A DNA stretch of 64,000 bases from Escherichia coli (GTDB taxonomy: Bacteria; Pseudomonadota; Gammaproteobacteria; Enterobacterales; Enterobacteriaceae), in NCBI RefSeq assembly GCF_024223415.1, contig NZ_CP100501.1. One strand, given 5' to 3'. Of the stretch, positions 2,997 to 61,495 are shown piece after piece. The stretch's first letter is position 1, and each line of letters begins with the position of its first letter. The translations under genes and the position numbers were made by a program. Below the pieces are notes generated by a model that was not told the DNA's origin, did no database searches, and saw only the letters and a list, made by a program, of their open reading frames with translations.

Positions 2997-3348
2997 TTTA
3001 CTCCCCCGCTCCGGCGGGGGTATGGCCTGCCGGGCCGCCGGAAAACCCTGGCAGGCTTACGCCTGCCTGAAATACAGGAGGGCCGCGCCTGCGGCGCTGC
3101 CCTTCCTGCCCGTCATGGTGTGAGGCATTTTTCTGTTTTGTCGTTTCTGTTGTTCTGATGCCCGGAGGCGGGGACACCCTTCGGCTCCCGGCTGCCTGGC
3201 GGCATCCGGTCGTCGGCCCGACTCCGACAGGCAGCTGCTGGCGCACCCGCCAGTCTCCGCCGAACCCGCTGGCGCGGTTTCGGGCTGCCGCTACGGTCCG
3301 ATGTCTGAAAAACCAGGCCTGCAGCGACCGTTCCGGTCGCGCCGCCCC

Positions 3349-3675
3349 TGTCGCGCCGGAAACGGCGCTCCCTGCACACCTGACGGTGTGTAAGGCCACT
3401 GCGCCTGATGGCGCAGTCAACCCTTCCGCCGCCACCCCTGCGGCCTGTTTCCCGCTGTGGACTTTCCGGGGGCTGAAGCGGCCACAACACGGGGCAGCCG
3501 TCCAGGGGAGAGATGTACCAGCCACAAAACTTTTTGCCGCAGGCGTCAAAAACTTTTGCGTCTGCCCCCGGACAACTGCCCCGTGCCGTGGCAGTCGCTG
3601 CCCCATCGGAAAGGTCCACTGCGGGGAGAAACCCCGAAGAAGTGGACGGCAGAAGGGGCTTTCGCCCCTCCGGGG
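3349..3675 (+). promoter_or_regulatory. Frpo/ssi-like single-strand promoter repeat, copy A
   Basis: About 330 bp GC-rich non-coding segment, near-identical to 6214-6543 (more than 80 bp identical around ccaggggagagatgtaccagccacaaaactttttgccgcaggcgtcaaaaacttttgcgtctgcccccggacaactgccccgtg); ends about 50 bp before the start codon at 3725. Confidence 0.55.
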
Positions 3676-3724
3676 GAGCAACCGGTCGGCCCGGCGACCT
3701 GATTCAGCAGAAGGAGACGTTTTC

Positions 3725-4159
3725 ATGACAGTCAGCAGCACGATTTCCGTTTTTTGCCGAGACGGGGTGTTCCGTACCGTTTACTGCCACCTGCACGGTG
3801 AGCCGACCTGGAACGGTCGCATCCTGCATACCCACTATGCCACCGGTCAGCTGGCCGAAGCCCTGGTTGAACACGGAGATATCCGTTGCCTCGGTCCCCG
3901 TTGCGACAAACCCGCCGGGCATACGCTTCAGAACCCGGTGGACGGTGTGACGGCTTATTACGGACGTGACAGTGGTTTCCGGATGGACAGTGAGGCGCGT
4001 GAGTACCGTTCTTTCAGGGAGGCTATTGCCACTGAAAGCACTGAAGAGGTGCGCTTCCATTATGTGTTCATCGACGGCTACTGGAAGGTGATGTACCGCA
4101 CGCCGGAAGGCTGGAAGATGAAAGCGCTCGCGCTGGCACTGCGTCGCTGTCCGGAATGA
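3725..4159 (+). CDS. hypothetical protein (144 aa), first gene downstream of promoter repeat A
   Basis: ATG at 3725 with GGAGACG SD-like sequence; MTVSSTISVFCRDGVFRTVYCHLHGEPTWNG; no recognised domain. Confidence 0.6.
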   Translation: MTVSSTISVFCRDGVFRTVYCHLHGEPTWNGRILHTHYATGQLAEALVEHGDIRCLGPRCDKPAGHTLQNPVDGVTAYYGRDSGFRMDSEAREYRSFREAIATESTEEVRFHYVFIDGYWKVMYRTPEGWKMKALALALRRCPE

Positions 4160-23666: not shown

Positions 23667-23976
23667 GGGGATTCCTCCATAGATGAATGGATAAATTTCG
23701 GGATTAAGTCGGGTGGCATGAATGCGAATCAGCGCCGGTAATAACCGGACAGGAATGAATTCAACAGGACATTTTTACAGAGAAGAGCGAACGGCAGAAG
23801 GTGGTGGGAGACAGGTACAAAAAAACCGACTGGTGAGGCCGGTTTTTTTGCGATTCCGGGGTGGAGTTGGTGGCTCTGACCGGAGGAAGTCTCTTTTCAG
23901 CTAACAATGAGAGAGCTGTTGTGACAGGCAATGTAAGAGTAAGCAGCAGTGATTTCCTCCATTGACGGAGAAACGG

Positions 23977-26687: not shown

Positions 26688-26941
26688 CGGTGGGGTACAA
26701 ACGCAGAAATTTTGTTGTCATTACATCATCAGTTTTAGCCTGCAGAGACGCTGAAAAATCAGCGTTTTCAGACCCTGTTCAGGTTAGTGAATATTCTTGC
26801 CTGGCCTTTCGGCAATATCAATCCCCTGATGTGTGCACACGTAGTCACTTTCCGGCTTTATTTCTGTCCCTGACACAAAATACGTGGTGGCATGAAAAGG
26901 ATTGTGGCGGACAGGAAAACGATTAGAATAGCGGCGGGCGC

Positions 26942-27235
26942 TTGAGGCTGTATGCCGAAAGCGTTTTGTGGACGGCATGTAGCAGAAAGCCCCAGGCGAT
27001 TTTTTTATCAATCAACCCAGGGCCCACTGTAATGCCTAGACAACATTATAGTAGCCCGATGACGGCCGAAAGGCAATGGAGGGGCTGCGATGCCACAACG
27101 AACGTTTTTAATGATGTTAATCGTCGTCTGTGTGACGATACTGTGTTTTGTCTGGATGGTGAGGGATTCGCTTTGCGGATTTCGTATCGAGCAGGGAAAT
27201 ACGGTGCTTGTGGCAACGTTAGCCTACGAAGTTAA
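26942..27235 (+). CDS. pndC: PndC-like overlapping reading frame (mok analogue) of the pnd locus
   Basis: ORF overlapping pndA in another frame, as in hok/mok architecture. Confidence 0.4.
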   Translation: MRLYAESVLWTACSRKPQAIFLSINPGPTVMPRQHYSSPMTAERQWRGCDATTNVFNDVNRRLCDDTVFCLDGEGFALRISYRAGKYGACGNVSLRS

Positions 27236-58793: not shown

Positions 58794-59963
58794 TCAGGAG
58801 GAGGATATGAAAATACTGTTCGCTTTTGTCATGAACTGGCTGTTTGTTAACGGACAAATCATGACCCGTTCATCAATGTTTGCGGGTAGCTCGCCTGGTG
58901 TGGGGACGCGTTCACCCCGCTGAGCAGCCTGGGCCAGTGCGCGCAGCAACAATACGCTGGCGTGAGATATTGCCAGTTCCCGGGTTTCAGCACGGCTTTC
59001 AAGGTCGAAATCGTGCAGTGTCACAATGAACACTCCGTTTCTGTTTCTGACAGTTGCAGGGTAGGGAACAAAATAAGGGGAAATTTTGCTGGTCTGTTTA
59101 CGCCTTGCATCGAGTTTACTGACCAGGTGATATGCCCGGAGATGTGTGTACCGTTTCAACATGTTCAGGGAGCGGTGACCGGAAATGGCTGCAATCTCCA
59201 TAACGTTCAGTGTGCCGAGCTCGAACAGACGGCTGATGGCCTCATGGCGGAGATCGTGAAAATGCAGATTTTCTATTTTCAGATCCAGAAGAGCGGTACG
59301 CCAGGCGCTTTTGAAACCGGACGAGGTGTAATTGAACACATTGCCGTTTATCTGTTGTGGCAGAATTTGCAGGTAGTTACGTGCTTTCCGGGAGAGTGGT
59401 ACGTCGCGTGGTGAGCCATTTTTCGTTTCAGGAAGATGCGCCACGCCGTGCTGCAAATCGAGGTGTTCCCAGCGTAATGAGAGAATTTCTCCCTGGCGCA
59501 TTGCTGTTTCCAGAGCCAGATGGAAGATAACGTAGAGCTGCGGATTTTTGTCCCTGAAATAGCGGGAAAGGCGGCGTTCTTCACCAGAAGTCAGTCGGCG
59601 GTCGCGGCCATTACTGATTTTCGGTTTTCGGACCAGTTCAACAGGATTCATACGGCATGTTCCCCATTCCACACGGGCGATATTGAATAATGATGATAAA
59701 AGGGCAAGTTCAAGACGGACGGTATTTCCGGTGATTTGACGCCCTGTTCGTGGGTTAATTTGAGCTAAACGCTGATCCCGGTAACCGGCGATATCAATGG
59801 TAGTGATTTCATCCATATAGCGCTCGGCCATAGGGTGACGTTTAATCACATTGACGCGATAAAACTCCTGCAGATGACCTTTTTTATGGACGGAAACGGT
59901 TTTCAGGTATTTGTCCAGCGCCCGGTTGAGAGTCATTTTGCGAATTTTGATTTTTCGAAACAT
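58794..59963 (-). CDS. rci: Rci shufflon-specific tyrosine recombinase
   Basis: [30 protein letters not shown]...; tyrosine recombinase motifs (HDLRH, ...Y); adjacent to shufflon. Confidence 0.85.
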
Positions 59964-60025
59964 ATCTGCCTTCCACGATAAAAACGGGGAAGGTAGGAAT
60001 AGTGAAACGGAAATGCAATATCGCC

Positions 60026-60512
60026 GTGCCAATCCGGTTTGTGGCTTGGAGGCAATAAAGTGAACTATTCTGCCTGTAAATGGTATGAAGCGACCTCCGC
60101 ACATTTTATCGGTGGCAGAAGTGGAGGTTCTATTTATTACAAGCCGATTCAGTGCCCTGCCGGGTACGTCATGACAGGTACAAGAATGTACGGCATCGGA
60201 GATGGTGTTGATGAAGAGCACGTCGATGCTTACTGTTGCCCTTTTGGTTAGATTCCGGCACCAGGAAGGTTGAGGCATGTGACTGATATGGTCCCACCAG
60301 ACTCATAATTTCCCCAAGCATAATTACTCACATACCAAACGTTGTTTTGGTCGGAATATACCTGTTGAAAACCACCAAAGGGTGAGCCATTCAGGTAAGT
60401 CCATGAGCAATATGCATGGACCCCGAGCCTTAAATTACGAGTGTTTTTAGCTATGTTGTAGGTCTGCGTTGTGAATTGAATTTTAGGAGCGCCCCAGGTA
60501 CCGGATTGGCAC
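60026..60512. other. shufflon: invertible segment bounded by inverted 19-bp sfx repeats
   Basis: gtgccaatccggtttgtgg at 60026-60044 and its inverted copy gtgccaatccggtacctgg (revcomp) at 60494-60512; both placed in-frame at the CQSG codons of pilV. Confidence 0.7.
60027..60251 (+). CDS. alternative PilV C-terminal segment (silent orientation)
   Basis: Frame through repeat reads [19 protein letters not shown]...CCPFG; would fuse to pilV after inversion. Confidence 0.55.
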
Positions 60513-61495
60513 GAAAGTATTGCCCCTTTACTGTCGCGGCCTACAAGTCCGTCCGGTGAGCAGGAAGTACCTGCGGTGGCTGTTTTTTCCAGCTGTAAAT
60601 ACTCACCTGTGGAAAGACGACCGTCAGACCGGATCGTTCCACCGCTGACTTTGCCCCCTTTGATTTCACCACCGGTGGTGATCCCTTTGTTATTGACGGC
60701 GCGTATCCACTGGCTGTCCGTCATGGTGAAACCGCCTCCGTGCGTCGTGTTCATCCACCCCTTGTTGTTTCTGGTGATAAGCCAGCCGTCTTCGCTGGTT
60801 ATATAGCCTTTCACCGTGGCTTTCTGACCATTGAGGTTACCGGCGTTATTGATGTCATTTCCGCCCATGTTGATAGCTGTGTGCATCTGGTTCAGCTCTG
60901 ATCTCCCCGGGACCTGGAAACGATACAACCTGTCGCTTTCCTGCAGATCATCACCCGTCATGACGACGGCAATGTGACCTGCCGAACAGGTGAGTCCGTA
61001 ATCCCCCGGTTTGTCTGTCCAGGCGCCGAATGCGCCGGTTGCTGTTCCGTTTTTACCAATATAACCACCCAGCCCGGGAAGCAGTCCTGCCACACTGCGC
61101 AGACCATCTTCTTTGATATTCTGCCCCCCTGTTGAGCAGGTCAGGGCTTCAAGACGTCCTGTAGTCTGGTTACGGCGGATACCCGTGATATAACTCTGCC
61201 CAAACGGAGAATGATTAAATCCCTGTTTCAGGTATCCCTTGCGAATCAAATCATCGGCTGTAAAGTTTGCCGGAAGGCTGCCGTTGTGCAGAGTGGCATT
61301 GTTATCGGCAATGTAATTTCTGGCTGCGGTATTGTAGGCATCTGCATGAGAAGCAGCACTCTGGTAAAGCTGTTCATTCAGCCAGTTTTCTATTTCGGAA
61401 TAAATCAGCGGCGTGGCGATACCAATCACTATCAGTCCCGCCAGTATTTCAAGCAGAATAAAACCTTTGTCGTCATCGTGTCTGAACTTTTTCAC
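60248..61495 (-). CDS. pilV: PilV, type IV pilus minor pilin/adhesin with shufflon-encoded C-terminus
   Basis: Type IV pilin N-terminus [18 protein letters not shown]; C-terminal 80 aa lie inside the invertible segment. Confidence 0.85.

Follow-up and report, generated by a model that had tools for sequence, protein, structure and literature searches.

The pilV-rci locus and its gene context

The window, that is, the whole 64-kb stretch of Escherichia coli DNA that was analysed, carries a pilV gene, coding for the tip adhesin of a thin pilus, and the rci gene, separated by a single segment that is bounded by two inverted 19-bp sfx repeats (Table 1). Rci is a tyrosine recombinase of the shufflon-specific type (Pfam Phage_integrase, E 1.4e-24) that is 75% identical to R64 Rci over 373 aa (residues 6-372 aligned) and conserves the motifs AMRQGE, HDLRHE and RYTH, which hold the catalytic arginine, the His-x-x-Arg pair and the tyrosine, as well as the C-terminal extension. 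In PilV, the Pfam domain Shufflon_N spans residues 37-332 (E 2.5e-60 and 1.3e-47) and stops exactly at the CQSG motif (residues 329-332), so that an sfx site lies in frame at the end of the constant region. The leader and the mature start FILLE read as those of a type IVb prepilin. NCBI has the exact protein under WP_254539434.1, encoded by an E. coli plasmid contig of 139,970 bp and annotated as a shufflon-system PilV.

The genes pilU, pilT, pilS and pilR lie upstream of pilV and, together with traE/traF-like and other tra and trb genes, are collinear with those of R64 and pCh101, which places the locus in a type IVb thin-pilus and I-type transfer context. A promoter and terminator scan of 59800-60700 gave nothing above chance, and neither a promoter-like nor a minus-strand terminator-like site was found in the interval from pilV to rci; this is weak evidence, compatible with expression of rci by read-through. 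Elsewhere in the window, Rfam matches correspond to a sok antitoxin RNA of the hok/sok type (26936-27092), two ALIL pseudoknots, which are frameshift elements of the IS3 family (12391-12477 and 18042-18158), and an AgrB-like antisense RNA (23817-23904) near a dinQ-like toxin region.

Table 1. Features of the pilV-rci region, with positions in the window
Feature	Position	Strand	Description
rci, shufflon-specific tyrosine recombinase	58794-59963	-	389 aa; downstream of pilV, on the same strand; intact
Spacer upstream of the rci start codon (59961-59963)	59964-60025		62 bp; identical in pCh101
Single invertible segment	60026-60512		487 bp with both repeats counted; homologous to segment C of R64
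rci-proximal sfx	60026-60044	+	GTGCCAATCCGGTTTGTGG; 7-bp core 60026-60032, 12-bp right arm 60033-60044; perfect match
Silent PilVC' end	60027-60251	+	CQSG 60027-60038, then 70 aa ending in CCPFG, and stop; from translation
Expressed PilVC end	60248-60511	-	CQSG 60500-60511 (TGC-CAA-TCC-GGT), then 83 aa TWGAPKIQ...LNLPGAGI; stop 60248-60250
pilV-proximal sfx	60494-60512	-	GTGCCAATCCGGTACCTGG; core 60506-60512, right arm 60494-60505; perfect match
pilV, thin-pilus tip adhesin	60248-61495	-	415 aa; constant region to residue 332
pilU, prepilin peptidase	61492-62199	-	ORF collinear with annotated pCh101 and R64 genes
pilT	62159-62635	-	ORF collinear with pCh101 and R64
pilS, major pilin	62694-63230	-	ORF collinear with pCh101 and R64
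pilR homologue, type II secretion F-family	63280 to at least 63996	-	ORF collinear with pCh101 and R64

The sfx recombination sites

The pattern GTGCCAATCCGGTNNNTGG was searched across the whole window with up to three mismatches allowed, and exactly two matches were obtained, both perfect and inverted with respect to each other, about 450 nt apart between rci and pilV. This agrees with the original prediction, which had recognised only two inverted 19-bp repeats. Each site consists of the 7-bp core GTGCCAA and the 12-bp right arm TCCGGTNNNTGG, the anatomy described for sfx sequences in PMC11852207. At each site the right arm is within the segment and the left arm outside it, the two left arms being different: that of the rci-proximal site (60014-60025) is non-conserved and falls within the rci spacer, and that of the pilV-proximal site (60513-60524) falls inside the pilV constant region. 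In the nomenclature of IncK2 plasmids the rci-proximal site is repeat-h (PMC5350095), and the pilV-proximal site, an ACC variant, is an R64-type repeat. The two left arms share GCAATA at an equal distance from the core, forming an inverted repeat of 24 nt with 83% complementarity; this motif is missing from the rci-side arm of R64.

Two perfect matches at the 16 specified bases would be expected by chance in 64 kb at a frequency of about 3e-5 (our own arithmetic); given these statistics and the genomic context, a chance inverted repeat was rejected. Additional degenerate repeats hidden within the segment, the finding proposed at the outset as contrary to a minimal shufflon, were sought with a looser scan of 59964-60600 (up to six mismatches at the 16 specified positions). 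This added only 60384-60402, with five mismatches, two of them in the crossover core, and 60247-60265, with six mismatches, four of them in the core. Shuffled sequence yields 0.29 sites with five or fewer mismatches, and hidden repeats within the segment were also rejected. The match at 60384 falls in the R64-identical half of the segment; R64 segment C has it too, outside the seven 19-bp repeats of that plasmid.

The invertible segment and its two alternative tails

The segment carries two convergent partial ORFs homologous to PilV C-termini of R64 and of IncK2/Z plasmids, which overlap by 3 nt (60248-60250) within their stop codons (60248-60251). Translation of both strands places both repeats in frame at the CQSG codons, as had been proposed. 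The two tails indeed end in LNLPGAGI and CCPFG, and their lengths after CQSG are 83 and 70 aa rather than the 80 and 66 aa first given; likewise, of the interval 59964-60512 initially taken as the shufflon, only 60026-60512 is invertible DNA, and 59964-60025 is the spacer upstream of rci. The expressed end matches R64 PilVC at 86 of 87 residues. The silent PilVC' ORF has neither a start codon of its own nor a constant region, and the C' end of IncK2/Z plasmids (L005-L007) has exactly its amino-acid sequence. When crossover within the 7-bp cores is simulated, the pilV constant region is joined to TCCGGTTTGTGG at the predicted C' junction, which gives an in-frame PilVC' of 402 aa with the 70-aa tail. 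The proposal of one invertible segment with two alternative PilV C-termini is therefore upheld by the similarity of Rci to that of R64, by the end of Shufflon_N at CQSG and by the in-frame simulated inversion. Predicted PilVC' with this constant region had no match in a collection of about 15 billion proteins, and the second orientation was not seen: the sole other copy of the segment, in pCh101, is oriented identically relative to rci.

Neither C-terminal tail was assigned to a family by NCBIfam, and PilV had only a weak pseudopilin match; for this reason segments were named from the annotations of relatives and from alignment to R64. The name C derives from 'shufflon protein C' annotations and from the tail sequences. 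The proposed comparison with the R64 pilV segments identified the retained segment as the homologue of R64 segment C (R64 record L003, 33741-34233), to which it is 87% identical, the identity to segment C of IncK2/Z plasmids being 90%.

The segment is a chimera. Over its C' half (60026 to about 60267) the sequence agrees fully (100%) with IncK2/Z plasmids, its DNA identity to R64 being about 75% there; over its C half (about 60278 to 60512) it agrees fully (100%) with the IncI1 plasmid R64. The switch point falls within a shared 11-bp stretch, TTGAGGCATGT, near the stop codons on which the two ORFs converge. A search of 72,556 plasmids and 5,426 E. coli genomes found this chimera, apart from the window, in pCh101 alone. 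It points to an exchange of adhesin cassettes between lineages of the I-complex, and is a modest but real curiosity.

Plasmid lineage and the closest relative

An R64-type rci flank and pilV constant region, as found in IncI1 plasmids, are not present in the window: the PilV constant region is 42% identical to that of R64, and the flanks, the length of rci (1170 bp) and the backbone match plasmids typed as IncK2/Z. By these sequence matches, the backbone is IncK2/Z-like and not IncI1. In full IncK2/Z shufflons (L005-L007) there are eight sfx sites and four segments, the order of which varies among near-identical plasmids, and the IncK2/Z-like relatives of the window have from 4 to 8 sites. These shufflons pair the A end with a 129-aa tail (VWVGFESYPVGSPIPW...), in place of the R64 A' tail; it is annotated as a phage tail or tail-fibre protein (L006, 4384-5130, with equivalents in L002, L005, L007 and L009).

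The closest relative is pCh101 (NZ_CP127318.1; IncK2/Z, MOBP, MPF_I), which is 98-99% identical to the window over the 25 kb and the 2.9 kb tested, and shares with it 100% DNA identity in rci, the spacer and the chimeric segment C. It differs in having four sfx sites and two segments (C then A), and in a different sequence at a patch of pilV (60593-60712). This patch of about 120 bp also differs from all aligned K2/Z relatives (75-92% identity per 40-nt bin) and is not R64-like; it looks like a tract of local recombination. Taking 582 bp (3314-3895) out of pCh101 leaves a sequence that matches that of the window without a single mismatch in 1,779 bp, counted from the end of rci as far as 60 bp into pilV. 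The 582-bp difference comprises one sfx, an 8-bp linker and segment A, and lies between two direct sfx sites. Segment A of pCh101 (A/A'; L001, 3322-3895) is 99.8% identical to segment A of R64 and stands on a PilV constant region of the K2/Z type, which suggests, on sequence grounds, that cassettes were exchanged between the IncI1 and IncK2/Z lineages. In pCh101, IS2 adjoins rci, and the window has no IS2 there. Between 62000 and 111000 of that plasmid many genes are flagged as frameshifted (homologues of pilQ and pilR, traO, a traU-like gene and traY), and its assembly may contain indel errors.

Single-segment shufflons among related plasmids

Multiple contiguous invertible segments, the arrangement of R64, are not found in the window, where one segment and two sites are present; the lone segment places it in a reduced single-segment subclass that is already described. 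R64 shares with the window the sfx core and right arm, the order and strand of pilV, shufflon and rci, and the CQSG junction, but has four segments (A-D) and seven sfx sites; these figures had been given in the original prediction, and all seven sites were found in the R64 record. The frequency of the reduced form was surveyed in PLSDB by joining 300 bp of the rci side and 300 bp of the pilV constant flank in one query and counting records in which both flanks were no more than 800 bp apart, a distance that leaves room for one segment only. With the flanks of the window (K2/Z type), 23 of 428 records were single-segment (spans of 1127-1348 bp), and with those of R64 (IncI1 type) the count was 61/1361 (1068-1178 bp), so that single-segment shufflons amount to about 5% of the related deposited plasmid records. 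Exactly two sfx sites were confirmed in pLS45-2 and in pECOED of E. coli ED1a (both IncK2/Z), and in pACN001-F.

A one-segment shufflon is thus an ordinary, already described kind. IncK2 shufflons with two to eight recombination sites have been reported, three of the plasmids having two repeats (Seiffert et al. 2017, PMC5350095). These three (pTMSA970, pTMSA992 and p5312.29) resemble the window in plasmid complex, rci type, single segment and number of sfx sites, but contain two repeat-e sites and another segment of about 554 bp (span 1154 bp), whereas the window has repeat-h, the R64-type ACC repeat and segment C. The plasmid pACN001-F (NC_023326.1) is likewise C-only: it has two sfx sites and no more, and its segment is oriented for expression of PilVC. 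It differs in its IncI1-type rci, pilV and backbone, and in its segment C of 493 bp, which is purely of the R64 type. In an IncI2 plasmid, one segment was found in two structures at near-equal abundance (Sekizuka et al. 2017, PMC5430464), and the pil operon of Salmonella Typhi is reported to have two 19-bp inverted repeats on which Rci acts (Tam 2004). By description, the SPI-7 pil shufflon of S. Typhi and that of the IncI2 plasmid pMRY15-131_2 are alike to the window in having one segment, two 19-bp inverted repeats, Rci and two forms of PilV; they differ from it in that the former lies on a chromosomal island and the latter belongs to the IncI2 lineage.

Among the IncK2/Z plasmids, pLS45-2 (NZ_CP095450.1; L004, 1826-2352) has a single 527-bp segment that combines the C' end with a different tail (VWQNSDKKERFTV...), which in full K2/Z shufflons sits in another segment; judged from its sequence, it is a second chimeric or deleted form. 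E. coli chromosomes, too, carry loci with rci, shufflon and pilV (a 1.1-kb query matched 116 chromosomal places, for example NZ_CP182371.1, 1643471-1645772), and presumably these are integrated I-complex elements.

Origin of the one-segment state

The stretch 59700-60800 of the window has no single contiguous match among plasmid or complete E. coli records, and the exact C-only arrangement was not found in the plasmids, E. coli genomes, species-representative genomes and metagenome contigs that were searched. This result, together with the way in which the window differs from pCh101, makes an assembly artefact the serious alternative to a true one-segment shufflon: the real plasmid could have more segments (for example C and A), and in a mixed population the assembler could have jumped between repeated sfx copies and collapsed them. 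A repeat-mediated jump of this kind would yield exactly the difference seen, one sfx-to-sfx unit with 0 mismatches in the surrounding 1,779 bp, although this match cannot discriminate between collapse and deletion, because a biological deletion would give an identical sequence. There are precedents, since TP114 was first deposited in GenBank with one segment missing and possibly mis-assembled database shufflons have been noted (PMC5430464). On the other hand, two-repeat shufflons are found in the same plasmid family in a study whose shufflons were verified by PCR and Sanger sequencing (PMC5350095), and the approximately 5% of single-segment records come from many laboratories and platforms, pECOED being one of them. 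A collapse is considered unlikely here.

A shufflon that has become locked, with repeats and rci present but a segment that no longer inverts, would make PilVC alone, as in Salmonella Paratyphi C, for which an inactive version of a natural shufflon is reported (Tam 2004). The single orientation seen in the window and in pCh101 and the missing PilVC' in the protein collection are in line with this. However, Rci is full length with its catalytic motifs conserved, the silent C' ORF is unbroken and does not differ from its counterparts in active-looking relatives, and records with identical rci-proximal 300 bp carry segment C elsewhere and in the other orientation (CP070395.1). Given the perfect sites and the intact Rci, a locked relic is the less likely reading, and is regarded as very improbable.

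On the favoured reading, the one-segment state would derive from a C+A shufflon like that of pCh101 that lost exactly the 582 bp between two direct sfx sites. This deletion route is unexplained, because recombination of direct sfx sites is reportedly not carried out by wild-type R64 Rci (Gyohda 2006), its inversion-only activity being ascribed to the asymmetry of sfx. The difference would therefore reflect a rare excision, a deletion between other short repeats, the gain of segment A in pCh101 or an assembly collapse. That the one-segment state combines the movement of cassettes between lineages with excision in vivo between direct sfx sites, neither of which is textbook shufflon behaviour, is a tentative proposal, more doubtful than not.

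Proposed mechanism and consequences

The locus is probably an Rci/sfx inversion switch of the type IVb thin conjugative pilus in an IncK2/Z-like I-complex plasmid of E. coli, reduced to one segment. Everything that Rci-mediated inversion requires of the sequence is there and intact. Crossover within the GTGCCAA cores would flip about 473 bp and, in frame after CQSG, would swap the 83-aa PilVC tail for the 70-aa PilVC' tail, so that a population would be expected to toggle between two adhesins, compared with seven in R64 or eight in full IncK2/Z shufflons.

The tails of PilV select recipients in liquid mating by binding to the LPS core (PMC5430464). For R64, the ligand reported for PilVC is GlcNAc(beta1-7)Hep, and those for PilVC' are Glc(alpha1-2)Glc or Glc(alpha1-2)Gal (both as cited in PMC5430464). 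Homology suggests that, in liquid mating, PilVC and PilVC' of the window would each bind a different LPS-core structure of the recipient. By analogy with work on R64, pCT and TP114 (PMC5430464, PMC5350095, PMC9045228), it is a reasonable inference that fewer tails would narrow the range of recipients, as the original prediction had anticipated.

The relevance of these observations is small outside plasmid epidemiology, and the case is a reminder that the length of shufflons in deposited assemblies needs checking against reads. Within that field, the recipients that an I-complex resistance plasmid reaches, be it in the gut or in liquid, may depend on how many PilV tails it has and of which kind, and a plasmid with only C and C' is predicted to have a narrower host reach than its eight-tail relatives.
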